DNA of 64,000 bases from Escherichia phage vB_EcoM_phAPEC6, in the sequence record MK817115.1, one strand, 5' to 3'. Positions within the stretch are counted from its first letter, which is position 1, and each line of letters starts with the position of its first letter. A program made the translations under genes and the position numbers. This document shows positions 2,932-57,797 of this stretch, piece after piece. The notes under the pieces are model-generated. The model did not search any database. It worked only from the letters and a program-made list of their open reading frames with translations, and had not been told where the DNA came from.

Positions 2932-2983
2932 ATAAAATCCTTTTTATATTGTTAAGGTACTATAATATATTATAGCATCTTAT

Positions 2984-3274
2984 TTAGAAATCTTCCAAAC
3001 TTTTTTCATCACACCATCGTGATGTACAGATGATTGCAGATGCCAGAATTGAAGCACTTGCACGTCCTCCACCGAGTAAATACTGGCTAATTACGCCAAT
3101 CATATTGAACACTTTATCATACTCGGTTAGTTGTTCAAAACCTTTCTTCCAATGCTGATATTCTTCTTCTGTGACATTAAACTCACCATCAAGTTCCTTT
3201 AAAATCTTTTTAAGCACAGCACTATGTTCACTCATCATCATCTCCATATCGTTCGTCATAAAAATCATCATCAC
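2984..3274 (-). CDS. hypothetical protein (96 aa)
   Basis: ORF only. Confidence 0.35.
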   Translation of the reverse strand: MMMIFMTNDMEMMMSEHSAVLKKILKELDGEFNVTEEEYQHWKKGFEQLTEYDKVFNMIGVISQYLLGGGRASASILASAIICTSRWCDEKSLEDF

Positions 3275-3313
3275 GATCTAATGGTTCTTTTGGCTTTTCA
3301 GACATATATTTCC

Positions 3314-3574
3314 TCACATGGTAAAGGTATTATCACCATCCATATCTTCATCAGTTGCTTCAGCTAATGTCTTGATTGTAAGTAATCCACGCTTCACGTA
3401 CAACATGAAGACCTTTTCATAATTACCAAACATAATCTCAGGTGACATGTAATTCTCTGTTACAATGACGATTGGACGGCCCTGTGAAAGCATACGAAAC
3501 ATAGTACGATATTTGTCAAATGTGCGAAATTCATCCATGTTCATCATGTGGCGTTTACGAACTACTTTAGTCAT
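3314..3574 (-). CDS. hypothetical protein (86 aa)
   Basis: ORF only. Confidence 0.35.
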   Translation of the reverse strand: MTKVVRKRHMMNMDEFRTFDKYRTMFRMLSQGRPIVIVTENYMSPEIMFGNYEKVFMLYVKRGLLTIKTLAEATDEDMDGDNTFTM

Positions 3575-3588
3575 CTTATTACCTTTAG

Positions 3589-4029
3589 TTAATTGAACTC
3601 TACTTCTGGATAATGATTATAGAACATCTCACGAACTGCGTCAAGATGTTCTTGAAATTGTTTTATATCTTCTAATGATGGTGCATCAATAACAGTACTA
3701 AGTTGAAACAACGATTCTTCTGTGTTATATAGTGACATATCAAATGAATTATTGTTGTCATCAGTTATGATATTATCACAAATTTCGTAAGTGTCAATAC
3801 AAACATCATCAAGTGTTGTATTATCATATACAGTGTATACGAATACAAAAATAAAAGAAGAATGTTCTTTACCATAACGCGGTGGGTCATATGTCACATA
3901 GCATTTGTGATCAAATGTATCGAGTTCCATAGACACCACCCCAGCTTCACGATATTCATTAGTTTCACTGGTAAGATCCGGTATTGATGTTATCGAAAGT
4001 AAGTGGAGAAATTTACTTGGATTTAGCAT
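3589..4029 (-). CDS. small protein, FQxS-block tandem paralog family (146 aa)
   Basis: Block TEESLFQLSTVID. Confidence 0.55.
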   Translation of the reverse strand: MLNPSKFLHLLSITSIPDLTSETNEYREAGVVSMELDTFDHKCYVTYDPPRYGKEHSSFIFVFVYTVYDNTTLDDVCIDTYEICDNIITDDNNNSFDMSLYNTEESLFQLSTVIDAPSLEDIKQFQEHLDAVREMFYNHYPEVEFN

Positions 4030-4484
4030 TTCACCACCATTGGATTTTGCGACTGTATATTAAAAAGGGATAATACAAAAGTACTCAATTTTTCGAAACA
4101 ATCTACTAATACATTTAACTCATCATAACTAACACCAATTTCACGAATAAGCGATTGTTGAAAGAATCCTTCTTCGGTTAACGTTAAACTACTAACCTCA
4201 GTTATGTTATAATAACTTTGGGATGTTGTGGTTGATATTAGTTGTATTGAAATCGTATCTGATGTTGTGTTGTACAGATATAAATATTTTGTTTTTCTTT
4301 CCAATGGATCTATACATGAAAGATCGATCATGTCATAGGTTTTTCCAATAAAAATATTACAATCATCTGACAATTCACAACAAATGCGTATATGTTCTTT
4401 CGGGTCATGAACACGTTGTGTGTCAAATTCACATGACATTGCAATTTCAAAATGATTTTTTATTTCGTCAACATTCATCTGCAC
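4023..4484 (-). CDS. small protein, FQxS-block tandem paralog family (153 aa)
   Basis: Block TEEGFFQQSLIRE. Confidence 0.55.
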   Translation of the reverse strand: MQMNVDEIKNHFEIAMSCEFDTQRVHDPKEHIRICCELSDDCNIFIGKTYDMIDLSCIDPLERKTKYLYLYNTTSDTISIQLISTTTSQSYYNITEVSSLTLTEEGFFQQSLIREIGVSYDELNVLVDCFEKLSTFVLSLFNIQSQNPMVVKC

Positions 4485-4852
4485 CCACCATTAATTCTTA
4501 TATTTGTATAGTTTAATGCTTTTTTAATAATACCAATTTCTGTAATTCCTATTACATTTTTCTCAATCAATGACAATTGGAATAGTTCCTCTTCGGAAAT
4601 ATCAATACTGTGGATTCTTGTACAATAATCGTTGAAGTCATATACATATCGTATTGTATAGTCGTTTATAGAAACTGATACAATTGCAATCCCATCATGG
4701 ATGTAAGTTAGTTCATTTGAGTATCTATTAAAAATTAACCTATCTGGTGAACCTATTGGTAGTTGAAATGTATTTCTAGTATCTTGAACAATAACAAAAT
4801 CATCATCTATATTTCTACTCAGAACACCCAAAATATCATATATAGTAGTCAT
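4475..4852 (-). CDS. small protein, FQxS-block tandem paralog family (125 aa)
   Basis: Block SEEELFQLSLIEK. Confidence 0.55.
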   Translation of the reverse strand: MTTIYDILGVLSRNIDDDFVIVQDTRNTFQLPIGSPDRLIFNRYSNELTYIHDGIAIVSVSINDYTIRYVYDFNDYCTRIHSIDISEEELFQLSLIEKNVIGITEIGIIKKALNYTNIRINGGCR

Positions 4853-4853
4853 G

Positions 4854-5258
4854 TTATTCTTTACCTTCAGCAGTTCTGATAATTTTCATAACTTCTCTGG
4901 ATAGTGCGTATATTTTTTTATAGTACTCAAATGTAACTGAACCAAAATCATTAATAGTACTAGCCATGAAGAACGATTCTTCTGTATATAGTTCATTTGA
5001 CAAAGCAACCAGTTCTTGGTGAAATTTTGCGTCCTTCCAATAACGAAATTCAAAAACAAATTGTCCGTCATGACCGACTCTACAACATTCAGAACGATCA
5101 CTGTCTACACAGCTAAACACAATATCCCTTTCAGAGTCGTACCAGATATTTCCAATATTTGTTTCAATAACAGCATAATCAATTTTTTTAGAATTTGGAA
5201 TTAAACCTTTTTTCACCAGCACTAAACTGGTATTATCAATATCTAGTAAACTTACCAT
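4854..5258 (-). CDS. small protein, FQxS-block tandem paralog family (134 aa)
   Basis: Block TEESFFMASTIND (Q replaced by M/A). Confidence 0.5.
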   Translation of the reverse strand: MVSLLDIDNTSLVLVKKGLIPNSKKIDYAVIETNIGNIWYDSERDIVFSCVDSDRSECCRVGHDGQFVFEFRYWKDAKFHQELVALSNELYTEESFFMASTINDFGSVTFEYYKKIYALSREVMKIIRTAEGKE

Positions 5259-17975: not shown

Positions 17976-18620
17976 TTATTTGTAATATTTACCTAGTACT
18001 GAATAAATTTTCAGTCTAAGTTCTGTCCAGTTTTCGATATATTCAAAACCACTATGATTCTTATACATAGTATTATGAGAACATCCCATCATAACTGATG
18101 GAATACCAAGACCCATAGCAGTTTCAATATTATTGATATAATCATCAATCATTAGTTTTACATCATATCGTGTTTGTAAATCCTCTAATGCTTCTTTCTT
18201 TGATTCATTCATTTCTATGATAATAATCTCATCAAAGCAGTTTTCACCAAATTCACGCATTAGATTTACATTTCGTAAAACTTCACCATAGCCTTTTTTA
18301 CCACATTTTGTGAGTACTACGAATTTTTCTTTATGAAAACGATCACGTAGCTCTTGTACAATATCAACTGTATTTGGTTCGACTGGCTTTAACAACCCAA
18401 ACAAATATGATTGTTGGTTGAACTGTTCAAGAATCTTTTTAACTTCAGGTTGAGGAACACCCAACCAGTCTGATAAATCATATTCTAATGGGTATGGTGT
18501 TGATGGTGTGATATTATAAGTTTGTTTTACAAACTCAGAAAGCATACCCATATGGTCCAATAGAACTTCATCACAATCAAAAACTATACAACGTGGTTTC
18601 ATTACATGTTCCCCGAACAA
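17976..18620 (-). CDS. HAD-superfamily phosphatase, 5'(3')-deoxyribonucleotidase-like
   Basis: HAD motif I FDCDEVLLD and motif IV MIDDY. Confidence 0.55.
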   Translation of the reverse strand: MFGEHVMKPRCIVFDCDEVLLDHMGMLSEFVKQTYNITPSTPYPLEYDLSDWLGVPQPEVKKILEQFNQQSYLFGLLKPVEPNTVDIVQELRDRFHKEKFVVLTKCGKKGYGEVLRNVNLMREFGENCFDEIIIIEMNESKKEALEDLQTRYDVKLMIDDYINNIETAMGLGIPSVMMGCSHNTMYKNHSGFEYIENWTELRLKIYSVLGKYYK

Positions 18621-19591
18621 ATTAGGTCAATCTCACACAGTAAAGCACTAAGATTCATTTCACGGTCTGATACTGTTGCTTGCTTAACAACTGCATCACG
18701 AATTTTAACTTTAATCTTCATCAGTGTGATTTCATCAGTACTGAACATTTCAGCATTTCTGTACAAGTAAGAGAAAAATGCATCCATCTCATCATCAGGG
18801 ATATTTTGTACAATTTGTTCACGCATTTGGCGAATGTTGCCTGCCTTTAATGCTTCAACAATTGCAGTACGATACCCTGCTGAATTTTCAATACTATCTT
18901 CAAGTTTTACTAGCTTACCATCAACAACTGAACTTTGCAATACGTTTAGTGTTTTACGGAAATCAGGATAGGAAGCATTGATGTACTTTTGAACTTGTTC
19001 AACACTATCATCACTACTCAAATCAACACCTTCTGCTAGAAGAATATTATAAATTCGAGTCATGAATTGTTCCATATCATGCTTTTCGATTGTAATAACT
19101 TGAACACGAGAAATGATAGGTTTTTGAATTTTATGTGGTTCGTTACTTGTTAAAATAAAGCGAGCATTTTCATGATAGTCTTCCATTACACGTTTCAAAC
19201 TACCTTGTGCTTTGTGGTTCATCTGCTCCATTTCTTCAAGAACAAAAATACGATATCTACCAAAACATGATAGCTTTGCTGCGGCATCGATTTTGTCACG
19301 AACAGCATCAATGCCTTCATCGGACATGTTAAGCGTGGTCACATCACTTGGATCAAGGTGTCCATTTTGAACTAGTCCATTAATTAGTACTTTGATCGCA
19401 GATGTTTTACCAGTTCCTGCTGGGCCAAAAAACCCAATATGTGGAATGTCACCAGTCTTAATCCATTCTTCCATTTTCTGGCGTAGTGCATCGTTTTTTG
19501 ATACATAATCTTCCATTGATTGTGGGCGATATTTTTCAGTCCATAGTGTGGTCATTTGTATTTCCTTATGTGTACGTGTTATAGAATCCAA
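18602..19591 (-). CDS. gp44: clamp loader large subunit (gp44/RFC-like AAA+ ATPase)
   Basis: Walker A GPAGTGKT, Walker B-like VLEEMEQ, SRC-like ISRVQ; overall pattern matches T4 gp44. Confidence 0.85.
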   Translation of the reverse strand: MDSITRTHKEIQMTTLWTEKYRPQSMEDYVSKNDALRQKMEEWIKTGDIPHIGFFGPAGTGKTSAIKVLINGLVQNGHLDPSDVTTLNMSDEGIDAVRDKIDAAAKLSCFGRYRIFVLEEMEQMNHKAQGSLKRVMEDYHENARFILTSNEPHKIQKPIISRVQVITIEKHDMEQFMTRIYNILLAEGVDLSSDDSVEQVQKYINASYPDFRKTLNVLQSSVVDGKLVKLEDSIENSAGYRTAIVEALKAGNIRQMREQIVQNIPDDEMDAFFSYLYRNAEMFSTDEITLMKIKVKIRDAVVKQATVSDREMNLSALLCEIDLICSGNM

Positions 19592-19851
19592 TCGGCTGAA
19601 TTATATAATAAAGCCGTGAAAAGTTCTTCTGTCATTTCCAATTGATTTAATAAAAAATTAAAAGAATTTGCCTTATTTTTAATCCCAGTACTTTCAGCTT
19701 GGGCTGATGCAACTAATAAAACTTTAAACATATCATGTGAAACTTCATATACATATTTGGTATTTTTTCTATCTTCAAACATGAATCTTCCGTTTTTAGA
19801 TACTAATGTTACATCCTTGAAACTAAATTTTCCATCATCAGTTATCATCAA
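19579..19851 (-). CDS. hypothetical protein (90 aa)
   Basis: ORF overlapping gp44 start by 13 nt. Confidence 0.35.
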   Translation of the reverse strand: MMITDDGKFSFKDVTLVSKNGRFMFEDRKNTKYVYEVSHDMFKVLLVASAQAESTGIKNKANSFNFLLNQLEMTEELFTALLYNSADWIL

Positions 19852-19904
19852 AATCTGTCCAAATAAAAAGCCCAGATATTCATCCGAGCTTTAATTATAT
19901 TTTA

Positions 19905-20231
19905 TTAACGACCAAAGGTTAGCATTTTAGTTCGTGGATCTTCATCTGAAACTAAACTAACTGCGGCTGGATAATCAACCAAGTTTAATTCAATACCATC
20001 AACTTCAATAGTTCTTGACCATCGACCATGATCAATTAAAATCCATTGACCTTCTTTAATATCAGTAATGTCTTCGCCTACAGAATAAACTTTTGCCCAG
20101 CGAGAACGAATACCTCTAATTTTACCGTCATCGTTTGTTAAAACGATACCACCTGCTGTTTTGCGTTCACCATGTTCCAGTTCAGTTACCAGTACTTTAC
20201 CTTTACATGCAGTCATTACTTTATTAGTCAT
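19905..20231 (-). CDS. gp31: GroES-like co-chaperonin (gp31-like)
   Basis: KTAGGIVLT and downstream beta-hairpin pattern typical of Cpn10/GroES. Confidence 0.75.
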   Translation of the reverse strand: MTNKVMTACKGKVLVTELEHGERKTAGGIVLTNDDGKIRGIRSRWAKVYSVGEDITDIKEGQWILIDHGRWSRTIEVDGIELNLVDYPAAVSLVSDEDPRTKMLTFGR

Positions 20232-20239
20232 TTAATATA

Positions 20240-20584
20240 TTACTCCTGATCTTTGGTTCTAGCTCGACGTGGTGCTTTCTTCTCTTCAGAAACCTCAGCT
20301 TCTTGTTCTTCGGGCTTAACTTCAAAACTCTCATCATCCCATACTTCATCCGTACCATGTTCAGTACTATGAAGTTGATGTTCAGGGATATAATCAGGAA
20401 TTTGCATTTCTCGTTCTTTTTCTTGAATCAACTCTTCACGAGTTTTAATAATTGTTCCACCGGAACCGATTTTATCACCACGTGCGTTTAGATTAGCATT
20501 ACCCAATGCTACCTGATGTTGATTTTGGTACTTGAGCATATCCATGTCAATTGTTGTACCACGATAAGTTGTATGTTTAGACAT
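20240..20584 (-). CDS. hypothetical protein with acidic C-terminus (114 aa)
   Basis: ORF only. Confidence 0.35.
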   Translation of the reverse strand: MSKHTTYRGTTIDMDMLKYQNQHQVALGNANLNARGDKIGSGGTIIKTREELIQEKEREMQIPDYIPEHQLHSTEHGTDEVWDDESFEVKPEEQEAEVSEEKKAPRRARTKDQE

Positions 20585-20603
20585 ATCAAAATCCTTTTAT
20601 TGT

Positions 20604-20643
20604 ATGTGTGATATAAGCCTACAATAAACATTATATCACATGT
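20604..20643. promoter_or_regulatory. inverted repeat (ATGTGTGATATAA ... TTATATCACA) in intergenic region
   Basis: 10-11 bp arms with 14-nt loop; T-run follows on the plus strand, not the minus. Confidence 0.3.
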
Positions 20644-20647
20644 TTTT

Positions 20648-21166
20648 CTACCATTTCAAAAATTCGTTAACATCAAGTTCGTACTTCAATGAATCTACCA
20701 TATGTAGTCCAATCAAAAACAAACAGTATGATGCAACAGAGCTTCCACGTCCTAGACCCCAAAAGATCTCATTTTCTTCCATATAATCAACAAGCCATAT
20801 CATACATCTTAGTAGCTTTGTCATATTATAATATTCATATAAATCAAGTTCATACTCAACACGTTTTCGTGCTTCATCGGATGTGCATTTTTGTAAGAAA
20901 AAGTCACGCAGATTTATATTGTCGTATACTGGATCATATCGCCACAGTTCATGATTTTTATCATGCTCAATTGTATAATCCAGCATACGTTGTTCTAAGC
21001 CAAATTTTTTACAGTTATCATTGAATTTCAACCTTTCAGGTTCATCAATTTCCTGCAATTGTAAGTACTGGATATCTGCACCGCAATTGATTGCATAAAC
21101 AACTGCGTTAAGATTACATTTCACATCACCATTGGGACTTATAAATCTGTTTCCTTGTACTTTCAT
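20648..21166 (-). CDS. DnaE (Pol III alpha)-like fragment: PHP-end to palm GRGS region (172 aa)
   Basis: C-terminal 67 aa align ungapped to E. coli DnaE around GPGRGSGAGSLVAY (GLGRGSSVASY here); N-terminal NRFISPNGD...AVVYAI resembles PHP-domain end; ORF stops just before where DnaE has PDFDVDF. Confidence 0.5.
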   Translation of the reverse strand: MKVQGNRFISPNGDVKCNLNAVVYAINCGADIQYLQLQEIDEPERLKFNDNCKKFGLEQRMLDYTIEHDKNHELWRYDPVYDNINLRDFFLQKCTSDEARKRVEYELDLYEYYNMTKLLRCMIWLVDYMEENEIFWGLGRGSSVASYCLFLIGLHMVDSLKYELDVNEFLKW

Positions 21167-47466: not shown

Positions 47467-48987
47467 TCATTTCCTTTGATTTAACCATTGCTTCATTGCA
47501 TGAACACGATCAGTACCAGCATGTGTCTGTGGATTCTGTATTTCGTTTTGTGTCGTAGAGTTAGGAGCACTATCAGTATTTAGTGTTACTGTATTGTCAG
47601 GTTGCACAGATGGTGATTTAGCTGCACCAGAAAGCGAATGACGTAATGTTTGCATAGTGCTGGGTGGTAACGCCATGTTCCCTCCACCAATCTTAGAAAC
47701 ACCGCTGTGACGGAATCCATTACCTTCGGTTTCCATTTGTTGTACTGTAGTTGCGTGGTCAAGAACTCTCAATGAATCAATATCATAAGACATACGCAAA
47801 CGGGAACCTACTGCACTACTGTTACGTGTTTTTTGGAAATCAAACCATAGTTCGCCAGTTTCTTTTCGTGCCTCAATATAAATTACGTTATCAGCAGTAT
47901 AAATTTTTGAAATACCGCCAGCAATCTGACTTTGACTTTTCTTATCTTCGTCCATACCACTACGGTTAAACTGAGATGCAGTGAAAACAGTTAAATCCAT
48001 TTTGGTTGCAAGTGCACGTAATTCTTCTGATACAAACTTATCTTTAGTAAATGTATTGGATTTATCATTTGGTCCAAGACGATTAGAAGTTAATAGATCC
48101 AAATAGTCCACACATACATAATCAAGTTTGATTTCCATCTTAATTTGTAATTCACGTAGATAACTTTCAATATCGTCAGTGGTTGTTACAGATTCAGGTA
48201 AGCGTTTAATACGCAACATACCACTGTTTTTACCTTCAACTTTAACAGCAAATCCAATCTTTTCAGCTTCATTTTTTACGTTACTGAGTTTTGATTCAGT
48301 CATCATACCATAGATACGAACAGCAACCAACTCTTCAGCTAGTTCAAGTGAAATGTATGCACCATTCATACCAGCTTTCGCAAAGTTAACTGCTAAATTT
48401 TGCAGTACTACTGATTTACCACCACCTGATGCAGCAGCAAAGATCTCTAACTCTCTACGCCCAAATCCACCGAACAGTTTGTAATCAAGAGTTTCCCAAC
48501 CACTCTTAAATGACCCTTGCATTGTACTGAGTGAGCGGATTGTATCTTCAGGGTTTTCAAAAATGTCCAAACCTAACTCATTCTGTACCGTTACCAACAT
48601 TGCTTCTCGGATTAGTTCTTCGATTCCACCATATTTTTTCTGATGGACAAGTTCCATTCCTTTTTCAACGGCTAACGCTAATGCTTTATGACGACAAAAT
48701 TCACCACAGGTATCAAGTACTGATTGTTTATGTAATTCTTGAACTTCATATTGATCGTATTGATAACCACCTTTAACTTCAATATCTTTCAAAGTAGGTG
48801 ATGAACTATATTTTGCAGCATAATCATGCACGTATTGAATACTTTCATGAAATGTTTTATCAAAATATTCTGGTTTAAGGATATTTTTACAACGTACATA
48901 TAAATCAGGATTACTGAAAATCTGAGATAATAAGTATTGTTGTGCATTAATCCCATATTGTTTCACATCCACTGTGCTTTGAATCAT
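47467..48987 (-). CDS. gp41: DnaB-family replicative DNA helicase (gp41-like)
   Basis: Walker A SGGGKS, DYLDLL and SQFNRS motifs. Confidence 0.85.
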   Translation of the reverse strand: MIQSTVDVKQYGINAQQYLLSQIFSNPDLYVRCKNILKPEYFDKTFHESIQYVHDYAAKYSSSPTLKDIEVKGGYQYDQYEVQELHKQSVLDTCGEFCRHKALALAVEKGMELVHQKKYGGIEELIREAMLVTVQNELGLDIFENPEDTIRSLSTMQGSFKSGWETLDYKLFGGFGRRELEIFAAASGGGKSVVLQNLAVNFAKAGMNGAYISLELAEELVAVRIYGMMTESKLSNVKNEAEKIGFAVKVEGKNSGMLRIKRLPESVTTTDDIESYLRELQIKMEIKLDYVCVDYLDLLTSNRLGPNDKSNTFTKDKFVSEELRALATKMDLTVFTASQFNRSGMDEDKKSQSQIAGGISKIYTADNVIYIEARKETGELWFDFQKTRNSSAVGSRLRMSYDIDSLRVLDHATTVQQMETEGNGFRHSGVSKIGGGNMALPPSTMQTLRHSLSGAAKSPSVQPDNTVTLNTDSAPNSTTQNEIQNPQTHAGTDRVHAMKQWLNQRK

Positions 48988-49009: not shown

Positions 49010-50065
49010 TTACATCCATTTATCCGTTTGAGCTTTAATATAAAATGGCTCATCTACTATACTATCATGTATTAATTGTAAACAAAATAACCTACCAAAT
49101 CGTGCACAAGCTTCTTCAAAGTCCTTGATATGACGTATTGTACTACCTTCTCTTACAGCACCAAAGTCTGGGAAGGAAACACTGAATCCATTTTCAAGTG
49201 CTTGGTCTATAGTTATTAATCCATCTTTATCTCTATCTGGAACAATAACTATTTTTTTACCTTTTTGCTGTGCATCTTTTAATACATCAATCTGTACGTT
49301 TGATAATTTAAAGTTATTAGCAGATACACCACCCATTAATGCTGCGTCTAACGGACCCTCACATACTAAAATTGTTTTTATTCGTTCATCTTTTAATAAA
49401 TCATAGTTATATAGTATATTAGTACTTACTTGATTTATGAACCTGTATGTACTTCCAGGATCTTTTAATTTATGTCGTGCAGTATAACCAATAATTTTAC
49501 CATTCATGAAATATGGAATAATAAATCTGTCATACATTTTATGTTCTTTATTAGGTGACCAATATAATTCTAAGTCTAACAGATATGGGTTTCTTTCATT
49601 GACATTATGCAAAACACTTATAAATTCTTGTGGAATTTTATCTTCAGGTAAAGAAGCCCATTCCCAAAATGTTTTTGCATTTGATGGCAAATCACGTACT
49701 GTTACTCGGTCATACAATTTTGATGCAACAGTTTCTTGTGCAGCAAAATCACCGCTGTCAACCATTTCTTTAATATAAAACTTAACTAATTCTATTTCTT
49801 TATCTTGTGCACCAAAAGAAATGAGCAAAGACTCCATATCTTTGCTCATATATTTTCCTGGTTGCCAACCAGTTTTTAAACTACAGTTAAAGCAGTTATA
49901 TGAAACGGAACCATCTGCATTGAACATATGATTACCACGGTGCTTTGTATCCGGCCTTGAATGTCCTCTGAACACACAAGCTGGACAGTTGTGTCGTGAC
50001 CATGTACCAATCGCAGGTACTGGATCATTCATAATTTGTGCCATTATGTTTTGTACAGCGTTCAT
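49010..50065 (-). CDS. gp61: DNA primase (DnaG-like, gp61-like)
   Basis: N-terminal zinc finger (CPAC ... CFNC) and Toprim ILVCEGPLDA; adjacent to the helicase. Confidence 0.85.
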   Translation of the reverse strand: MNAVQNIMAQIMNDPVPAIGTWSRHNCPACVFRGHSRPDTKHRGNHMFNADGSVSYNCFNCSLKTGWQPGKYMSKDMESLLISFGAQDKEIELVKFYIKEMVDSGDFAAQETVASKLYDRVTVRDLPSNAKTFWEWASLPEDKIPQEFISVLHNVNERNPYLLDLELYWSPNKEHKMYDRFIIPYFMNGKIIGYTARHKLKDPGSTYRFINQVSTNILYNYDLLKDERIKTILVCEGPLDAALMGGVSANNFKLSNVQIDVLKDAQQKGKKIVIVPDRDKDGLITIDQALENGFSVSFPDFGAVREGSTIRHIKDFEEACARFGRLFCLQLIHDSIVDEPFYIKAQTDKWM

Positions 50066-50120
50066 AAGTTAATCCTTGTCTTTTCTTACAAATGATTATA
50101 GCACACCTTCTAGTTTTGTC

Positions 50121-51164
50121 TCATCTACGTATCAAAATTTTAGGTACTGTTAGGAAAGGGTCATACACTTTTCGGACAGCAGCATAGTCATATGGTACTG
50201 GAACAATTTTGGGATGAATAGCAACCACCAAACGTAACCACATATAATTTCCTTTAAAATTAAATGCTTGTATTCCGTCAAGTTCTTTTGGAAAACCTTC
50301 TGAATCAATTCCATTTTCAATATAATCCTTTCCATCTAATTTAATAATAAACCATTTATAGTTTTCATTATCATTAGGTACGTTGTTACACAAGCACCCT
50401 TGTAGCTGTATTCTACCAATAAATTTATCAAAATAGATTGCAATACTACTTAATCCTTCTACTAATCCAAACTGCATTTGTGCTGGTAGTGGAGTTGATG
50501 CGAGAATATCATATTCACCAATCATACCATTTCCAATTGGTTCATGATATAAACGCTTTATAGTTGTCCATGCTGGATTTTTATTAACTGATATTTCAGT
50601 ACTGGGGACAAATACAGGTGCTGCTTGGTCTGAAATTATTAGCTCTGCTGATGCCTCAAAGTTCATCCCTGTGTATAGATATTGTGTTGGTTCTATAAGT
50701 GAACCATCCATTGTTACTTTAGTAATGCTCCATCTATATTTTGAACCAGGACTGGTATCTTGAATAACTCCTGCTGGAACAATACATCCATAATATACTT
50801 TCTTTTTATTTCCTAATGTTTGTCTTGCTTGTCCACTTTCTGATAACCAACTGGGTTCTTGTTTTTCTAATACAACATCAAATAGTTTAGTATTATTTCG
50901 TGCATCAAAAATCATAAATGTAAGATATTCATTATCTTTCAATAAAGTATATTTTCCATCAGCGTTGTGAACAGTAAAAGATAAATTATTATTTGCCCCT
51001 CTATATATAGTTAGTTTTTCATTGCTATATGGCATATTAAAATTGCCCAATGATACTTCCTGATTATAAGGGTACATAAACACGCCGTGATGAGCCATAG
51101 TTTTTCCTTCCATAAATAATAGGTATAAATTTATACTAATATTTATGGAACTAATATGAATCAA
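50121..51164 (-). CDS. hypothetical protein (347 aa; true start may be internal Met)
   Basis: ORF; N-terminal extension overlaps the divergent plus-strand ORF. Confidence 0.4.
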   Translation of the reverse strand: MIHISSINISINLYLLFMEGKTMAHHGVFMYPYNQEVSLGNFNMPYSNEKLTIYRGANNNLSFTVHNADGKYTLLKDNEYLTFMIFDARNNTKLFDVVLEKQEPSWLSESGQARQTLGNKKKVYYGCIVPAGVIQDTSPGSKYRWSITKVTMDGSLIEPTQYLYTGMNFEASAELIISDQAAPVFVPSTEISVNKNPAWTTIKRLYHEPIGNGMIGEYDILASTPLPAQMQFGLVEGLSSIAIYFDKFIGRIQLQGCLCNNVPNDNENYKWFIIKLDGKDYIENGIDSEGFPKELDGIQAFNFKGNYMWLRLVVAIHPKIVPVPYDYAAVRKVYDPFLTVPKILIRR

Positions 51165-51509
51165 TATAACACTATTCCACCATTCATTACTGTAATCCAG
51201 TATGATGGTAAAACGTTTGTTGGTATCATCAAAATCAAAAGCAAACAGTATACAACTCTTTACTGTTTCGATGATATGGATGATTCAATGCAAGACGAAT
51301 TGTTAGGTATAGCACACGATTGGTGGTGGCAAAGTAATAGAACCATTCCAGTTTGTCTATTCTTTCAAGAAGAGATGGAGAAATTTGAACCGTACACACA
51401 GAGATTCGATACACCGTCGGTGAATTTCGTATGTGGTCCAGTAGTTTCTTTAAGCAATTTGCCACAGAAACGCATCAAGCGTCGTAATGTGGCTCTTAAG
51501 AAGAAGTAA
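51156..51509 (+). CDS. hypothetical protein (117 aa), plus strand
   Basis: One of few plus-strand ORFs; TATAAAT about 45 nt upstream; basic C-terminus. Confidence 0.35.
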   Translation: MNQYNTIPPFITVIQYDGKTFVGIIKIKSKQYTTLYCFDDMDDSMQDELLGIAHDWWWQSNRTIPVCLFFQEEMEKFEPYTQRFDTPSVNFVCGPVVSLSNLPQKRIKRRNVALKKK

Positions 51510-52134
51510 GATGTTCAACTAAAGCATTTAGTTGTACAACAATCATTAAGCTATATGCGTAAGCATGTGGCTTTTTGAAATATCGTAATTTATTTCCTGC
51601 TTGGTCAGTGCCGATAGTACTATAATCCCATATGGTAGCTTTAACTTCGTCCCATGTGTTCATACTTTGGCACTGCCTTTTTCCTGGGCGAATCATTGCA
51701 ATAAACATTGCTAGTTCGTCTATAGATTTAGGCTTCCATATATTTAATAAAGTTACATGTTTTTTAATTTGCGATAGATGTTCTACAATTTCGGGTTCTA
51801 ACAATAGATCCCAATTTGGTTCCTGATTCATTAGTTCTTTTAAATGCTCTCTATCACGAACATACATGTAAGCTGACTGTGAAAGAATATCAACTTTTTG
51901 ATACCCTAACCTTTCAGCTTCTTTATATTGTATACTTGCCAATCCAGTGATTGGGTCAATAGGTATATTATCAAAATGAACACCACTATTATGGGGGATT
52001 AAACCATCCTCCGTAATTTTTTCAGTACTTCGCACACATGGAAGTTTAGCGATTACGCTTTTACTATCCTTGAAGTCAATGTCAATATCAGTTCGGGCTT
52101 TTCTATAATGTTTAGAATCGGTCGAATCCTGCAT
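51496..52134 (-). CDS. DnaE (Pol III alpha)-like fragment: catalytic palm/fingers core (212 aa)
   Basis: Ordered matches to DnaE motifs: DIDIDF (PDFDVDF), HNSG (HAGG), KVDIL (KFDFLGL third Asp), IRPGK (FRPGP), KKPHAYAYS (NKSHSAAYA). Confidence 0.5.
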   Translation of the reverse strand: MQDSTDSKHYRKARTDIDIDFKDSKSVIAKLPCVRSTEKITEDGLIPHNSGVHFDNIPIDPITGLASIQYKEAERLGYQKVDILSQSAYMYVRDREHLKELMNQEPNWDLLLEPEIVEHLSQIKKHVTLLNIWKPKSIDELAMFIAMIRPGKRQCQSMNTWDEVKATIWDYSTIGTDQAGNKLRYFKKPHAYAYSLMIVVQLNALVEHLTSS

Positions 52135-52441
52135 TTTTTATTTGCTCCTGTAACTGTTTAACTGTATTAGTCAAAGTTGATATTTGATTCTCTAATAATC
52201 TACAATTTTGTTTTGTCTTTGCCAATTCTTGACTTAAACTGAAAAAGCGTTCTTCGTGTCTTTCTACCAAAGAAATAATTTTTTCAATACGAGCAGGATC
52301 ATGAACTTGAAATGTTTTACCATCTAAAGTTATTTCAGTAATAGATCCTTGTCTAAGTAGAGATATTTGTTTTGATTTTTGTTCTTTAGGTACAGGTACA
52401 TACCCTTCTGGTATTTTATTATATATACTTTTTCCATTCAT
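52112..52441 (-). CDS. hypothetical protein (109 aa)
   Basis: ORF only. Confidence 0.35.
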   Translation of the reverse strand: MNGKSIYNKIPEGYVPVPKEQKSKQISLLRQGSITEITLDGKTFQVHDPARIEKIISLVERHEERFFSLSQELAKTKQNCRLLENQISTLTNTVKQLQEQIKNAGFDRF

Positions 52442-53148
52442 AATCCTGCCTCACATAGCATAATCTTAATTTCATCACAATCCTTTTTGTATTTTATAGT
52501 TTTGATTTCAAAATAACTTGGATCGATGTATTTAAGTATATATTCAATTTCTGAGTTTGATAGTTTTTTAAAAAACTTATTAGTACTTTTTTTAGGAGCA
52601 AGCCAGATAATCCAAGGTGAAATTTTACCACTCTCAATCCATGCAATTGCACGGGCAGAACTTACATTTTCAAAGAAAGTATTCCATTGTACATTCAAAT
52701 TTTCAGCCCATTCAACCAGTGAGATAACACTTCTTGCAATTGCTTCTTTTGGGTGCTCGGCACGAATTGTTTTTAATATCCATTCATCTTTTGCTTTATA
52801 TGTACTCCATTCCGTGATTGGTTTGTTATTGATAATCAAGTACTTTACAAACTCGTCCACATTAATAATATCTCTATTATTCAAATAGTATTCGGCAAAA
52901 CTATAAAAATCATTAAAGTACTTTGACTTTATAAAAGCAATAAAAGGCTCTACGCCTTTTTTAAATGGGAACTTATTCAATTCCATAAATTGCATATATA
53001 TACGAAAAGCCTCCATCATCTGGCGGCTTTGGCGGTCTTCGTATCGGTCACGTTTTATACATTTATGTGTGTTTACAGTTTCTTCACGTTTAAATTCACG
53101 ATCACAAAATCTACAGGTATATACTTTATTACTTGATTTCTTTGCCAT
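52438..53148 (-). CDS. protein with N-terminal C2H2/C2HC-like zinc finger (236 aa)
   Basis: YTCRFCDREFKREETVNTHKC. Confidence 0.4.
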   Translation of the reverse strand: MAKKSSNKVYTCRFCDREFKREETVNTHKCIKRDRYEDRQSRQMMEAFRIYMQFMELNKFPFKKGVEPFIAFIKSKYFNDFYSFAEYYLNNRDIINVDEFVKYLIINNKPITEWSTYKAKDEWILKTIRAEHPKEAIARSVISLVEWAENLNVQWNTFFENVSSARAIAWIESGKISPWIIWLAPKKSTNKFFKKLSNSEIEYILKYIDPSYFEIKTIKYKKDCDEIKIMLCEAGL

Positions 53149-53974
53149 ATTTTTTACATTCTTCTTTAAACAATTTCATCATAGATTTCTTTTCATTATC
53201 TTGAAAACCATTATTGTCAAGAAATGTCTCAAATGTTTTTTTATCATACTGCAATAGAACAATTTTGTACTCATCTTCATTCATTTGAGTAGATATAGTA
53301 TCAGGTTGTGAGCTTTTAATTAACTCAAATAATTCGTTATTTGCCTTTTTGAAATTCTTAGAAAAGTTTAACCAGTTACGTGGCATTTCTTGTCCACCAA
53401 TCATATCATGGACTGAACACATAAGCTGATATACTAATTCTGGATGTTCTTTCATATCCCAAAATCCATCATTAACCATATCATTTAGCATAATAAGTTG
53501 GTATTTGACAACTTCAGTATCTACTAATGAAACAATTTCGGAACCTGATACGCCAAATTCGACCATTGAGGATATTAATTTTTGTGCGTCATCTTTTGAT
53601 TGGACTGCAAATTTAATACGCCAATCATAATCACTATGACAGTACTTAGTTACTGATGAAACATTTGTCCCTGAAGACTTTAATTCAGTAACTAGTTCAG
53701 TCAGTGCTTCTTTACCACCAGATTTCCATTTTCCAAATACACTTTCAACTTTACTACTAGGGTAGGTTACTTGTAACGAATCATCTAAAGAGCTTACCCA
53801 TCGCAAAACAGTATATGGAGTAAACTCTTTTCGTTCTTTTTCGGTCATGTCATTATAGTACTTATAATCAGCACGGTCAATGTGTTTTAGAAATTCAGCA
53901 ATAGAAAAAGAATGCTGTGTTGGTTTTTCATCATCATCGACCGACTTATTTTTAATATTACTGAAATCAAACAC
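53129..53974 (-). CDS. hypothetical protein (281 aa)
   Basis: ORF only. Confidence 0.4.
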   Translation of the reverse strand: MFDFSNIKNKSVDDDEKPTQHSFSIAEFLKHIDRADYKYYNDMTEKERKEFTPYTVLRWVSSLDDSLQVTYPSSKVESVFGKWKSGGKEALTELVTELKSSGTNVSSVTKYCHSDYDWRIKFAVQSKDDAQKLISSMVEFGVSGSEIVSLVDTEVVKYQLIMLNDMVNDGFWDMKEHPELVYQLMCSVHDMIGGQEMPRNWLNFSKNFKKANNELFELIKSSQPDTISTQMNEDEYKIVLLQYDKKTFETFLDNNGFQDNEKKSMMKLFKEECKKYGKEIK

Positions 53975-53978
53975 TATT

Positions 53979-54476
53979 TTATACTCCTAGATACAAATCT
54001 TGAATTTTTTCGTTTTCATCTGCAAAGTACACACATGGTGGATTTTCACCACTATGTAGTGGGACGCATAGTAAATTCTTTTTAGGTAACATTGGTATCT
54101 GCCACTTTGTAGTTAATGCAAATACACGTAGTACTTTGACTGGTTCAAACTTAGGATACATTGAACGGATAGGATTGTAAACAAAAGCTTTTGGTTCTTT
54201 CATGTTAAGAATGTTTTCAATTGTACACATCTCAACCATACCAGTTTCTTCATCACCTAACATAATTTGCCATCCTAGAGGCACTTGAATAATCTTTTCA
54301 CCAATTTGAAGATCAGCACTAATACTATTAAATGATACGGTGTTTAGAATATGTCTAAAATAAAAATCAGATTCACCATTTGGGCTTAGATCCAAAACAC
54401 AATACATTTCTTCAGGGATATGTTCTGTTACTAAATCCATGTCAAAAGAATTATTTTCAGGTGTTAATACGTTCAT
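53979..54476 (-). CDS. hypothetical protein (165 aa)
   Basis: ORF only. Confidence 0.4.
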   Translation of the reverse strand: MNVLTPENNSFDMDLVTEHIPEEMYCVLDLSPNGESDFYFRHILNTVSFNSISADLQIGEKIIQVPLGWQIMLGDEETGMVEMCTIENILNMKEPKAFVYNPIRSMYPKFEPVKVLRVFALTTKWQIPMLPKKNLLCVPLHSGENPPCVYFADENEKIQDLYLGV

Positions 54477-54485
54477 GTCATCTCC

Positions 54486-54914
54486 TTAGTACTGCGAATC
54501 TTCTTCGTCATCATAATATTCTTCATCATCTTGGTCTTCTACCCCATAAAATTCAAGTCCATAAGTTTCACACATCTCTTGAATTTTATCTACATCAGTA
54601 TCCAGATATGAATCAAAATTACCACTTAGACTTACTACATCAATAAAAGTTTTCGTGTCAGTACTTGCATAGATGATATCATATTTCAATGATTCTACTT
54701 TAGAATCAATTCGTGTCTGTAATTCATAGATATTAATCCAAGAATCACTATCAATATTACATCTCCATACGTTAGTATCATCCGTTTCTAGCTCAGGTAT
54801 ATAGTCAAGAGAAGATACCATGTCATCCATAATACCATCATCGTTCAACAATACATCCATAACTTCTAAAGTTTCTTGGTCACAAATAAAAGCAATACTA
54901 GATCTCAATTCCAT
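54486..54914 (-). CDS. acidic protein (142 aa)
   Basis: Asp/Glu-rich throughout. Confidence 0.35.
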   Translation of the reverse strand: MELRSSIAFICDQETLEVMDVLLNDDGIMDDMVSSLDYIPELETDDTNVWRCNIDSDSWINIYELQTRIDSKVESLKYDIIYASTDTKTFIDVVSLSGNFDSYLDTDVDKIQEMCETYGLEFYGVEDQDDEEYYDDEEDSQY

Positions 54915-54953
54915 TTTATTTTACATCCTTGTTGTTGTCATATGACACATTAT

Positions 54954-54981
54954 ATCACAAACAGCGGGTTTATCCCGCTGT
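54954..54981 (-). terminator. terminator-like hairpin (ACAGCGGG-TTTAT-CCCGCTGT) overlapping uvsW stop
   Basis: 8-bp inverted repeat; weak T-tract. Confidence 0.35.
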
Positions 54982-56454
54982 GTTTTCCCAATCTTTAACA
55001 TCTATTATACTATGAGGATATTGTGCTTCCTTATAGTAAGCTAAACGTTCTCGTAAATGCTTGGCACTATACTTATTAGAACCACTAATATCATATATTT
55101 CTACGTGGTCTTTATCTTCTGCTCGGCGTAATCCACGTCCAATTGACTGTATAGTTCTTACAAAACTTTTTCCTGGCTCAATCAATACTACATTATATAA
55201 CCTTGAAATACTAATACCAGTACTGGCAACGCCGTATGTCGCAATAAGTATTTTATTATCAGCCCAACGAATTTCACCATAAGATGATTCTCGATCTTTC
55301 TTTTTAGTTTCTCCACGAACGAATTCTGATTTGGGAATGCCTAAAAATTCACATAGCAACTCACCTGCTTCAAGTCTATCTACTAAAACTAAAGTGTTTC
55401 CTGATTCAGATAACGCAGATATCAATGACGCTACATATGCCATCCTATCTCTGTCAGTTACTAAGTATTTCAACTCTTCAGCATATGATGCAAACTTCAT
55501 ACTACTTTTTAGTTTGATGCAATTCACATTACATGTACTTAGTATTTGTTTATCTTGTAATTCCTTTGCAGTTATTTTAAATATAACATCACCAACATTA
55601 CATTTGATTTTCGCGGCAACTACCGGATCTTTAGGAATTGTTCCAGTAAGACCCCAACGTAATGGTACGTTATTCATAACTTTAGAAAGTACTTGAACTA
55701 ATGCGTCACCGCCTGCACCTTGACACTCATCAACGATAACACAAACTACTCCATCGATAAAATCATTCACGTCTTGTTCAGTTAATTCAATTTCACCTTT
55801 CTTGGTTTTCTTCCATAGAGAGTTAAATGATTGCCAAGTCGTAATAGTATGTTGGTGACCAAAATCTTTTTGTGAACCATAGAACATGCCAGTATCCAAC
55901 CCACACATAATGTAGTCATCATATGTTTGTTGTACTAAGTCAGTACTTGGTACTATTATAACAGAACGTCCATACTCTTGCACTTTCTTTGACAATGCAG
56001 CAGTAATGAGAGTTTTACCTGCACCAGTAGCTGCCAATAGTAGTCCGTGTGGATTAGCCAAACATGCATTAACCGCATTAACTTGATGTTCACGTAGTTT
56101 TATGGATTTACCTTCCATGTGGTGTCCTGCACCGAATACAACATCACTAAAAATATCTTCATCAATGGGGTCAAATTTAAATCCATAATCTACCCTATGA
56201 TCTACTAATTCAATGTCAATCTTAGCTTCATCAAGAATAGGCAATAACTTATCTAACATATGATAATAAGTTGTCCCGCCTAAATTCATAAACTGAACTT
56301 TACCATCCCAACGTCCAATACGTCCTGCTGGTGTGAACTTTGCATATGGTAACACATATTCAGTTGCACGAATCATCTTTTGTCTAATTGAGGGATCAAG
56401 TCCCTCAAATTTACAATTCACCTCATCCAATAAGGTTAACTTACAAGTTTTCAT
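54970..56454 (-). CDS. uvsW: UvsW-like SF2 DNA/RNA helicase
   Basis: Walker A AATGAGKT, DECQ box, and N-terminal GRWDGKVQF matching T4 UvsW GNWDGRIRL. Confidence 0.85.
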   Translation of the reverse strand: MKTCKLTLLDEVNCKFEGLDPSIRQKMIRATEYVLPYAKFTPAGRIGRWDGKVQFMNLGGTTYYHMLDKLLPILDEAKIDIELVDHRVDYGFKFDPIDEDIFSDVVFGAGHHMEGKSIKLREHQVNAVNACLANPHGLLLAATGAGKTLITAALSKKVQEYGRSVIIVPSTDLVQQTYDDYIMCGLDTGMFYGSQKDFGHQHTITTWQSFNSLWKKTKKGEIELTEQDVNDFIDGVVCVIVDECQGAGGDALVQVLSKVMNNVPLRWGLTGTIPKDPVVAAKIKCNVGDVIFKITAKELQDKQILSTCNVNCIKLKSSMKFASYAEELKYLVTDRDRMAYVASLISALSESGNTLVLVDRLEAGELLCEFLGIPKSEFVRGETKKKDRESSYGEIRWADNKILIATYGVASTGISISRLYNVVLIEPGKSFVRTIQSIGRGLRRAEDKDHVEIYDISGSNKYSAKHLRERLAYYKEAQYPHSIIDVKDWENTAG

Positions 56455-56469
56455 CCATGATTACCTTTA

Positions 56470-57288
56470 TTAATTAGTTCGAGTATTATATTCGTACTCA
56501 AATGTATATACTAAATCTTTATCACAGTTAGGGTTACTTGCATCTAAAATGTCACTATTAGTAATCATCCATTCAATGTAATTCAATGGAACTGTACTCA
56601 TTGGCTCACCTTTGTGTTTACCAAATGGCATGAATTGATAACGCATTGGTGTGTTGCAGAAAGTTACAATTTGCTCACCAATATCACCATTAGGTTCGAT
56701 ATATCCACGTTCGATTGCAATTTCAACTAATTTGATTAGAACCTGATAACACATAAACACATCGTCTTTTGCTGCGTGTGCATTAACAGGTCGATGAACA
56801 TCACGATAACATCCAAACTTATACCACAAATAACTTAGAGTTAAGTTTTTAAATTCAATATCTTCTGCGAACATTTTCTTAGCAAGACGAAGGGTACAAA
56901 TCCATTTATTTTCATCAAGTAAGTACTGTGAAATTGAGTTACGATATTTATATTCGTTATCTACCATCATTCTACGGTCAAATTGTACATTATGACCAAC
57001 AAAATACTTACGGCAGCCCATAAGTGCATCAATGTTATCTAAATCATCTTTATACCCAACACAATTAGCTACATCCTCAGTACTGATAAAGTGCACAGCA
57101 GATGCCTCTGGTGGAATATCTTTCAAGGGTTTGTATCTCAATGTATAGTTATCAATAGTATCAATGTTTTCATGTGAAGTATGTGGATACGAGATACTAA
57201 ATTCAATAATATCATCTTCACTCTCAACCCCAGTAGTTTCAGTATCTAGAACTGCTACATTTGATAAAAACTCATTTAATTTTGTCAT
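56470..57288 (-). CDS. DnaQ-like DEDDh 3'-5' exonuclease
   Basis: Exo I LDTETTG, Exo II GHNVQFD, Exo III HAAKDD. Confidence 0.65.
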   Translation of the reverse strand: MTKLNEFLSNVAVLDTETTGVESEDDIIEFSISYPHTSHENIDTIDNYTLRYKPLKDIPPEASAVHFISTEDVANCVGYKDDLDNIDALMGCRKYFVGHNVQFDRRMMVDNEYKYRNSISQYLLDENKWICTLRLAKKMFAEDIEFKNLTLSYLWYKFGCYRDVHRPVNAHAAKDDVFMCYQVLIKLVEIAIERGYIEPNGDIGEQIVTFCNTPMRYQFMPFGKHKGEPMSTVPLNYIEWMITNSDILDASNPNCDKDLVYTFEYEYNTRTN

Positions 57289-57301
57289 TTTATTCTCGCA
57301 T

Positions 57302-57327
57302 AGAAAAAGGACGCGATATGCGTCCTT
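57302..57327 (-). terminator. intrinsic terminator-like hairpin (AAGGACGC-GATAT-GCGTCCTT)
   Basis: 8-bp inverted repeat then TTTTTCTAT on minus strand. Confidence 0.55.
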
Positions 57328-57335
57328 AATGATAA

Positions 57336-57797
57336 TTATTCTAAACGTGCATCCTCAATACCAGCGGCACGTAGTCTCACAATATTGTTTAACTGAAAAG
57401 CTTTCATCTCTAAGGATTTAACAATACTTGAATATGTATTTCTTATATAAGATACCTCGTTTATAAGTTCTGCTAACTCACAAACATCTTTATCACCTTC
57501 AACATACTTTTTACAGTCAGATGAAGATAGTGCACGGCGGTATCCTTCGAGAAAGTATTTGAACTTCTCGGCTTGTACCTGACGCATTTCAATTTCTAAC
57601 ATTTCCAATACTGCTTCAAGTTCTTGAAGCTGGCTTAGACGCGTCTCATGCCAGCCAGGAATCTCTTGAGCAATTTTTTCAATGATGCCAATCTTCTTTA
57701 CTTCACGACGAGCTTCTTCAACTTCTTTGTTAAAGAACTCAATCATTTCAATAATTTTAGATTTATCATCTTTGATAATCCAATGCCAAGGTTTCAT
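57336..57797 (-). CDS. hypothetical helical protein (153 aa)
   Basis: ORF between uvsX and exonuclease; sequence alone does not establish identity. Confidence 0.35.
   Translation of the reverse strand: MKPWHWIIKDDKSKIIEMIEFFNKEVEEARREVKKIGIIEKIAQEIPGWHETRLSQLQELEAVLEMLEIEMRQVQAEKFKYFLEGYRRALSSSDCKKYVEGDKDVCELAELINEVSYIRNTYSSIVKSLEMKAFQLNNIVRLRAAGIEDARLE

Follow-up and report, generated by a model that had tools for sequence, protein, structure and literature searches.

A predicted two-subunit minimal DnaE-type polymerase in Rak2-like jumbo phages: the gene of its C-terminal half and a distant partner gene

Why should a phage that encodes a complete family B DNA polymerase also carry a fragment resembling the bacterial replicase DnaE? 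This question is raised by a 212-residue open reading frame (ORF) with an ATG start, found in a stretch of 64,000 nucleotides of Escherichia phage vB_EcoM_phAPEC6 (MK817115.1; this whole stretch is referred to as the window, and positions are those of the window unless another record or contig is named). A first description of the ORF, made from the sequence alone (the sequence-only reading), recognised a C-terminal piece of DnaE and hesitated between a non-canonical nucleotidyltransferase and the catalytic half of a split enzyme, whose other half would be a second ORF of the same window. In our analysis, which compared sequences and structures, the 212-residue protein (the C half) is probably one of the two subunits, the C-terminal one, of a minimal C-family (DnaE-like) polymerase acting as an accessory polymerase. 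The second ORF (the N half) would encode its partner; the two genes share a strand but belong to different local gene blocks, with 30.3 kb between them. Jumbo myoviruses of the Rak2-like type with genomes of ~350 kb, namely the Asteriusvirus phages (PBECO4, 121Q and relatives), are 99.8-99.9% identical to the window.

The C half placed on DnaE

The five motifs that the sequence-only reading had claimed to follow the DnaE order were all found, in that order (Table 1), and each assignment was reproduced by profile-profile alignment (hhalign) to E. coli DnaE. For this purpose, an alignment of 22 members of the C-half family (41-83% identical to the query) was compared with one made from six DnaE proteins of full length, i.e. 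that of E. coli and five encoded by phages. The global comparison gave a probability of 96.7 and an E-value (E) of 5e-10. Locally, residues 22-151 were aligned with E. coli residues 486-641 (probability 95.6, E 1.2e-8), and two more collinear segments were obtained around the first and the last of the motifs (Table 1).

The alignment places D16, D18 and D20 on E. coli D401, D403 and D405, H48 on H511, K80 on K553 and, inside the segment with E 1.2e-8, D82 on D555, the position of the third catalytic aspartate. Further downstream, R149-P-G falls on E. coli 639-641, while K188, H190 and Y194 fall on K758, H760 and Y764. In the Pol III alpha of E. coli, D401, D403 and D555 are active-site residues and H760 is the steric gate (PMC8485763). 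The catalytic aspartates that the earlier description had expected to find by alignment with DnaE can therefore be named: they are D16, D18 and D82. D16, D18 and D20 are invariant both in the 22-sequence alignment and in a second alignment of 26 sequences, which includes fused relatives described below. H48, G51, K80, D82, R149, P150, K152, K188, H190 and Y194 are invariant in the former as well, as is K187 of the fingers helix, and the motif residues placed on E. coli DnaE are likewise invariant in the latter.

A structural model of the C half (AlphaFold2; mean predicted local distance difference test score, pLDDT, 90.8) was compared with the PDB using Foldseek. The top ten matches were exclusively C-family polymerases (Taq Pol III alpha, PolC and E. 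coli Pol III alpha; E 5e-3), and the first match after these already had an E above 1. Taken together, hhalign and the model describe a palm beta-sheet carrying the three catalytic aspartates, nearly no thumb and a smaller fingers domain.

The C half is a strongly reduced protein. The claim that it has about half the length of the corresponding DnaE span holds, since D16 to L196 comprise 181 residues, compared with 366 for E. coli D401 to L766. Most of the thumb (E. coli ~420-485) is reduced to a single short helix (residues 24-30 of the model). The protein stops ~20 residues past the finger helix, so the clamp-binding, HhH, OB and tau-binding regions are absent, and no part of DnaE that contacts epsilon, beta or tau is left in it. 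The alignable DnaE regions of both halves are limited to E. coli 317-392, 401-419, 486-641 and 738-~790. As for the PHP domain, neither half matched PF02811 at E<=1, hhalign gave a probability of 0.2 for what precedes E. coli 317 in the N half, and no such domain appeared in a genome-wide scan with a DnaE profile. Thus, the phage proteins do not have the full DnaE architecture, in which PHP, thumb, clamp-binding/HhH, OB and tau-binding modules reside on one ~1100-residue chain.

The partner gene, the seam and single-chain relatives

The active site of Pol-beta-type enzymes includes a G-R-G-S loop, which is absent from the C half and is supplied by the N half, a protein of 172 residues. The match of the latter to PF07733 (E 1.9e-9) reaches 37.9 bits, where the cutoff is 23.9, and covers profile positions 16-95 of 260; its residues 95-170 are aligned by hhalign with E. 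coli 317-392 (E 1.5e-11). The GLGRGSS nucleotide-binding loop is found there, with G139-R-G-S-S placed on the GPGRGSG loop of DnaE; R140, G141 and S142 are invariant in 116 sequences. The N half begins with ~90 residues in which neither a DnaE segment, PHP included, nor a Pfam family was detected. This region (residues 1-90) and residues 1-80 of the single-chain relative P0183 described below are modelled with low confidence (pLDDT ~45-53), and G29, N49, W75 and Y81 within it are still at least 90% conserved.

The N protein ends at about E. coli residue 394 and the homology of the C half begins at 401, which places the break in the loop at ~393-400. The chain is therefore interrupted inside the Pol-beta-type palm, between the GRGS nucleotide-binding loop and the D-x-D strand. 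When the two halves were joined in silico, the PF07733 score, 37.9 bits before, increased to 51.9 bits, with a match that crossed the junction to profile position 112; in this concatenation, as in P0183, it covers D16 and D18. Trans-splicing by a split intein can be ruled out: the N half ends two residues past the FERFL equivalent (...NEFLKW, followed by the stop codon), the C half begins 15 residues before DIDID, and the C half lacks an HN-C/S/T junction. Since there is no room for intein fragments on either side of the seam, any association of the two proteins must be non-covalent.

Single-chain versions of the enzyme (336-376 residues) exist in metagenomes, with the layout ...GRGS...EFIKD-(linker)-D-x-D-I-D... 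Three of them (P0183, P0270 and P0271; 375-376 residues, 78-81% identical) come from three different samples, while P0251 (336 residues) represents a second fused lineage. P0183 (375 residues) matches PF07733 with 59.6 bits, and the match spans the seam. Its AlphaFold2 model, built with three sequences covering the N part, has a pLDDT of 79.7 and is mostly confident over residues 81-375; the small number of N-part sequences probably accounts for the low confidence of residues 1-80. The top 18 Foldseek matches of this model were only C-family polymerases (E down to 2.3e-8; TMq 0.44-0.59), and the next one, a mitochondrial poly(A) polymerase, had an E of 1.5.

The genomic context of the fused genes is also informative. 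The contig of P0271 (L020) keeps the order found in the window, i.e. the polymerase gene, a convergent phrog_11637 gene and phrog_14467. The P0251 gene overlaps the stop codon of a gene for a 552-residue protein with a Replicase domain (PF03090, E 2.5e-13) and a helix-turn-helix motif. PF03090 is the Rep family of ColE2 type, made up of proteins that serve as primases specific to their plasmid, and the two genes resemble a compact replication module in which a primase is combined with a polymerase. A tblastn search of plasmids with the fused protein gave no match. The P0251 pair (L019 1516-4181; JGI 3300080032, Ga0669126_0033275) lies on an element that also contains genes for a peptidoglycan-binding protein and a DUF4238 protein.

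In phages the two halves are consistently separate. Using P0183 as the tblastn query, we obtained 95 phage records with 186 matching places; both halves occurred at separate places in 91 of the 95, and none carried them in one place. A single matching place was seen in a partial record, in CMSTMSU (where the match was fragmented) and in two Alishewanella phages of 141 kb. In one of the latter, Slickus01, a divergent N gene was recovered with a profile hidden Markov model (HMM) of the N family (E 1e-17; PF07733 E 8e-12). This gene, overlooked by tblastn and annotated as a hypothetical protein (WGH49842.1; record 79796-80308, L022 3797-4309), is located 10.8 kb upstream of the C gene; the two ORFs directly upstream of the C gene gave no BLASTP match with the N half of the window. 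Slickus01 also has two adjacent genes annotated 'DNA polymerase' (record 2558-4261 and 4261-5196). With its 141 kb, this phage shows that the predicted split enzyme is not confined to genomes above 200 kb. Abutting alignments, the score of the joined halves, natural single chains and this co-occurrence support the proposal, made in the sequence-only reading, that the C half is completed by the N half.

The identities of both halves to those of the window drop in parallel, being 82% (N) and 75% (C) in RaK2, 51% and 42% in PA5oct, and 36% and 37% in RsoM2USA; Atu_ph07 carries both halves as well. The C family comprises 498 clusters at 50% identity, nearly all of 185-215 residues, and 176 matches of ~172-187 residues were found for the N family. 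Comparison of the C half with its Turkey5 orthologue gave proportions of nonsynonymous (pN) and synonymous (pS) differences of 0.07 and 0.74 (dN/dS ~0.03), and comparison with RaK2 gave 0.18 and 0.71 (dN/dS ~0.09); these dN/dS values are rough because dS is saturated. The C half is under purifying selection.

The possibility raised in the sequence-only reading that the two pieces are degraded duplicates of a complete DnaE encoded elsewhere in the phage was examined in a phage that is 99.9% identical (OR844650), over its entire genome of ~351 kb. Among 3034 six-frame segments searched with a DnaE HMM with filters off, only the N ORF (E 6.3e-10, HMM positions 315-393) and the C ORF (E 0.0057, HMM positions 401-419 and 544-651) matched with E<0.01, and tblastn with six DnaE proteins found nothing in this genome besides the two halves. 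A second, complete DnaE is thereby ruled out. What the phage does encode is a complete family B polymerase (PBECO4 gp512; 1001 residues, PF03104 and PF00136, with its own exonuclease domain), located 5.5 kb past the end of the window and belonging to a T4-like set of replisome genes that includes gp32, gp41/61 and gp44 homologues.

The proposed enzyme and competing explanations

In the enzyme that we propose, the N subunit would provide the helical part of the palm and the GRGS nucleotide-binding loop, while the C subunit would provide the palm beta-sheet with D16, D18 and D82 as metal ligands, as well as the reduced fingers (the RPG motif and the K-x-H-x-x-x-Y helix). The active site would form only upon non-covalent association of the two proteins. 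The resulting heterodimer would be template dependent, because the finger segments surrounding the templating base and the incoming nucleotide are retained, and would select deoxynucleoside triphosphates (dNTPs), because H190, the equivalent of the steric gate H760, is invariant. Its intrinsic processivity is probably low, with a reliance on phage partners, since PHP, most of the thumb and the clamp-binding/HhH, OB and tau-binding modules are missing. We assign it an accessory role because a complete replicase of family B is encoded by the phage as well. The likeliest function, and the weakest step of the proposal, would be the extension of primase-made primers or the filling of short gaps at the fork; it is suggested by the conserved placement of the genes among those for the clamp loader and primase, and by the fused relative in an operon with a ColE2-type primase Rep.

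Several observations weigh against this interpretation. In Pfam, the C half alone matched only PF17657 (DNA_pol3_finger) and below threshold (E 0.043; 13.6 bits, the cutoff being 22), and PF07733 was not matched. A phmmer search of PDB sequences with the C half gave nothing significant (E>1), and hmmsearch with the profile of its family found M. tuberculosis DnaE1 (5LEW) among PDB sequences at E 1.3 only, although the aligned pieces were collinear and the expected ones. Single-sequence searches of PDB sequences with both halves gave E 0.2-1.7, with M. tuberculosis DnaE1 at E 1.7 for the N half. Since neither the single-sequence nor the profile-sequence searches were significant, profile-profile and fold comparisons were required, and the recognition of the C half as a DnaE relative depends on these. 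As the sequence-only reading had noticed, there is no LRRAMGKK region: E. coli 642-737, which includes YQEQVM and LRRAMGKK (708-715), has no counterpart in the C half. To judge from the alignments, the loss of this segment and of nearly the whole thumb leaves the holding of the primer-template and the contacts with the triphosphate in doubt. The physical association of the two subunits is deduced from the fused homologues and the model of one of them, and the role in primer extension from gene neighbourhood, with the N and C genes 30 kb apart. Finally, we found no biochemical or genetic data on any member of the family in the literature.

The same losses give some ground for the alternative that the two halves form a nucleotidyltransferase of the Pol-beta superfamily which does not copy a template, for instance a terminal transferase, an enzyme nucleotidylating primers or proteins, or one producing a nucleotide signal. 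With the thumb, the HhH/clamp-binding module and ~95 finger residues gone, stable binding of a primer-template is not assured, and no fold can be recognised in the ~90 residues with which the N half begins. On the other hand, the RPG motif and the K-x-H-x-x-x-Y helix that were kept are those surrounding the templating base and the incoming dNTP in DnaE and PolC, and the histidine that excludes ribonucleotides is invariant. Moreover, the structural neighbours are replicative C-family enzymes only, with poly(A) polymerase appearing at E 1.5, and the genes are located in replication clusters. We therefore consider such an activity improbable, and the non-canonical nucleotidyltransferase of the sequence-only reading is the less likely of its two proposals, given the retained template- and dNTP-binding finger motifs and steric gate. 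Even less probable is that the C protein acts without the N protein, whether alone, with another phage partner, or by binding or poisoning host Pol III. The distance of 30 kb between the genes, their different local blocks and the two complete Alishewanella phage genomes in which BLAST found a C gene but no N gene would fit this view; in Slickus01, however, the N gene was recovered by the HMM search. In addition, the GRGS loop, which belongs to every active site of the Pol-beta type, is missing from the C protein, fused N and C proteins exist, and the regions through which DnaE binds epsilon, beta or tau are not present in the C protein.

The view that the minimal enzyme and not the family B polymerase is the main replicase of the genome is very unlikely as well. 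It could draw on the conservation of the two genes across the whole group, their position among primase, helicase and clamp-loader genes, and the nearby stand-alone DnaQ-like exonuclease, which could proofread. Yet the family B polymerase is complete, has an exonuclease domain and is part of a T4-like replisome set, whereas the minimal enzyme lacks every processivity module of DnaE. We attach the least weight of all to the idea that both ORFs are decaying, functionless remnants of a once complete dnaE gene. The pieces are short, the C half scores below Pfam thresholds, large parts of DnaE have been lost, and the family B polymerase could perform all synthesis; but the catalytic and finger residues are invariant down to 41% identity, pN is 0.07-0.18 against a saturated pS of ~0.72 (dN/dS 0.03-0.09), and the family contains hundreds of clusters of uniform length. 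Both halves have been kept in PA5oct, RsoM2USA, Atu_ph07 and a 141-kb Alishewanella phage, and the genome holds no complete DnaE that could have been the source of a duplication.

A more specific version of the accessory polymerase, which we put forward tentatively and regard as rather unlikely in this full form, is a 'prime-and-extend' enzyme coupled to the primase: this enzyme would receive the primers that the phage primase makes and, with the help of the clamp loader, pass them on to the family B replicase. In this case the phrog_11058 and phrog_11637 proteins would be subunits replacing the lost thumb and duplex-binding modules, and P0251 would extend primers made by the ColE2-type Rep primase of its operon. 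If so, the single chains of 336-376 residues would be the smallest natural C-family polymerases and a tractable model for the origin of the family.

Known systems and gene neighbourhood

A minimal split Pol III alpha of this kind has been known as a prediction of comparative genomics since 2021. In the passages that deal with it, Iyer, Anantharaman, Krishnan, Burroughs and Aravind (Viruses 13:63; PMC7824862) describe such an enzyme in 'group 2.2' jumbo phages, encoded by distant genes, with an NTP-binding N unit and a C unit that binds Mg2+ and template. According to the same passages, the carriers are T4-related jumbo phages with a family B polymerase and without other Pol III domains, and the minimal enzyme may cooperate with the family B polymerase in the synthesis of one strand, or act in repair; it is regarded as a model of the ancestral form. 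On that description, the enzyme shares with ours the separate, distant N and C genes, the co-occurrence with family B and the absence of other Pol III alpha segments, and does not differ from it in kind. The text of the description and shared host phages, such as Atu_ph07, which these authors place in group 2.2, lead us to infer that the families are the same. Relative to what those passages contain, we add an explicit placement of residues including the steric gate, natural fusions from two lineages, a carrier of 141 kb that is not a jumbo phage, a phage DnaE of full size broken at the same seam, and the neighbourhood of clamp loader, phrog_11058 and primase.

As early as 2017, the N half of phage CBB had been described as a Pol III alpha that is 'truncated' (PMC5259590). 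Both genes are labelled 'DNA polymerase' in PHROGs (phrog_11778/11127) and in RefSeq (PBECO4 gp449 and gp488), and some GenBank records name the C half 'DNA polymerase III alpha subunit'. We found no experimental follow-up of the split mini-Pol III in the literature, and the enzyme is not mentioned in a 2026 review of jumbo phages or in a 2026 survey of bacterial polymerases.

Bacterial DnaE and PolC enzymes (2HNH, 2HPI, 3E0D, 4IQJ, 5LEW, 3F2B), the sole structural neighbours of our models, have in common with the minimal enzyme a Pol-beta-like palm, the GRGS loop, three aspartates, RPG and K-x-H-x-x-x-Y, all in the same order. They differ from it in size (1160 residues for DnaE, compared with ~384 for N and C, of which ~310 are alignable) and in the continuity of the chain, which in the minimal enzyme is broken inside the palm. 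A break at the same loop is found in the DnaE of Cellulophaga phage phi13:1 (KC821625), annotated as two genes, gp038 (525 residues; L010 1685-3262) and gp039 (673 residues; L010 3264-5285): gp038 ends ~55 residues after ...GRGS...FERFLN, and gp039 starts 19 residues before PDIDTDF. Unlike the minimal enzyme, this DnaE is of full size (1198 residues, with PHP and C-terminal modules) and its genes are adjacent. The seam therefore tolerates a chain break in another phage DnaE.

Cyanobacterial DnaE (Ssp/Npu) is another C-family catalytic subunit encoded by two distant genes, but its halves are spliced via a split intein, with an N-fragment of ~100 residues following the first half and a C-fragment of ~35 residues, ending in HN, preceding the second; the phage halves lack both fragments. 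The cyanobacterial break is located at the FNKS finger motif. In Bacillus and other Firmicutes, DnaE is a second, less processive C-family polymerase, which extends primers beside PolC and operates near the primase. Judging by its gene neighbourhood, the minimal enzyme may be a functional analogue of it, with the difference that the main replicase of the phage is of family B and not PolC.

If the heterodimer is active, no smaller member would be known of the family of polymerases by which bacterial chromosomes are replicated, with ~310 alignable residues compared with ~1160. Its single active site, built from two polypeptides, would define the minimal catalytic needs of the C family and bear on the origin of the latter, and T4-related jumbo phages would run two unrelated fork polymerases, as Firmicutes and eukaryotes do. 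The fused 375-residue form makes such a minimal polymerase directly testable.

Table 1. Features of the window related to the predicted split polymerase (residue numbers refer to the C half)
Feature	Position	Strand	Evidence or remark
C half of split minimal DnaE-type polymerase	51496..52134	-	phrog_11778 'DNA polymerase', E 6.6e-108
DIDID motif, residues 16-20 (D16, D18, D20)	52075..52089	-	hhalign, 16-32 on E. coli 401-419
HNSG motif, residues 48-51	51982..51993	-	E. coli H511-A-G-G (511-514), hhalign
KVDIL motif, residues 80-84	51883..51897	-	E. coli KFDFL 553-557, hhalign
IRPGK fingers motif, residues 148-152	51679..51693	-	E. coli F638-R-P-G-P, hhalign; weak PF17657 over 129-162
FKKPHAYAYSL fingers helix, residues 186-196	51547..51579	-	E. 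coli F756-NKSHSAAYAL-766; hhalign, 162-196 on 738-766
N half, 172 residues, helical palm part with GRGS loop	20648..21166	-	PF07733; phrog_11127; hhalign
GLGRGSS nucleotide-binding loop of N half	20729-20758		hhalign
RFC/gp44-like clamp loader, 1 kb downstream of N half	18602..19591	-	PF13177, PF00004, Gp44_lid; RefSeq clamp loader
DnaB-like helicase	47467-48987
DNA primase, 1.4 kb downstream of C half	49010..50065	-	phrog_47, E 1.2e-31
Convergent small ORF, phrog_11637	51156..51509	+	overlaps C-half 3' end by 14 nucleotides
phrog_11058 protein, C2H2-like N-terminus	52438..53148	-	conserved upstream neighbour of C half
UvsW-like helicase	54970-56454
Stand-alone DnaQ/epsilon-like 3'-5' exonuclease, 272 residues, 4.3 kb upstream of C half	56470..57288	-	PF00929, E 7e-15

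The neighbours of the C gene bear out the earlier statement that it sits beside primase and helicase genes. The run comprises the UvsW-like helicase gene, four small genes, the C gene, and the genes for the primase and the DnaB-like helicase (Table 1); genes for the DnaQ-like exonuclease, UvsY, a UvsX-like protein and SSB are found just upstream. The start of the C gene overlaps its upstream gene by 23 nucleotides. In the Ralstonia phage RsoM2USA the N gene is followed by two genes, the clamp loader, one gene, phrog_11058 and the C gene, all within 5.3 kb (L001 3300-8591), while in Slickus01 the clamp loader is followed by one gene, that of a zinc-finger-like protein, another gene and the C gene, with the primase 0.7 kb further on. 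In the window, the block with the N half and clamp loader (18602-21166) and that with phrog_11058, the C half and primase are 30 kb apart, and their order is reversed relative to RsoM2USA. This suggests a single ancestral cluster (N, clamp loader, phrog_11058, C, primase) that was later pulled apart in the Rak2-like phages.

Two neighbours recur with the C gene. The phrog_11058 protein (~206-236 residues) is encoded directly upstream of it also in RsoM2USA (L001 6916-7602; E 4e-47), and its positional equivalent in Slickus01 (L002 6886-7506) has a similar CxxC...H motif; this protein could be an accessory subunit of the minimal polymerase. The phrog_11637 protein, which has a basic C-terminal tail and no match in Pfam, is encoded in the same convergent position on the contig with the fused gene (L020 1641-2000, minus strand), with a positional equivalent in Slickus01 (L002 8470-8796, minus strand). 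The retention of a convergent overlap across such distant phages is unusual.

A scan of positions 50000-57500 for promoters and terminators yielded 41 promoter-like sites, compared with 38 expected. The DnaQ/RNase T-type exonuclease has an additional C-terminal match to PF12843 (QSregVF_b; E 1.5e-5). There are also two GroES-like genes in the phage: the first, annotated 'head morphogenesis', separates the N half from the clamp loader (19905-20231, minus strand), and the other, located outside the window (PBECO4 286924-287259), is annotated 'co-chaperonin GroES'.

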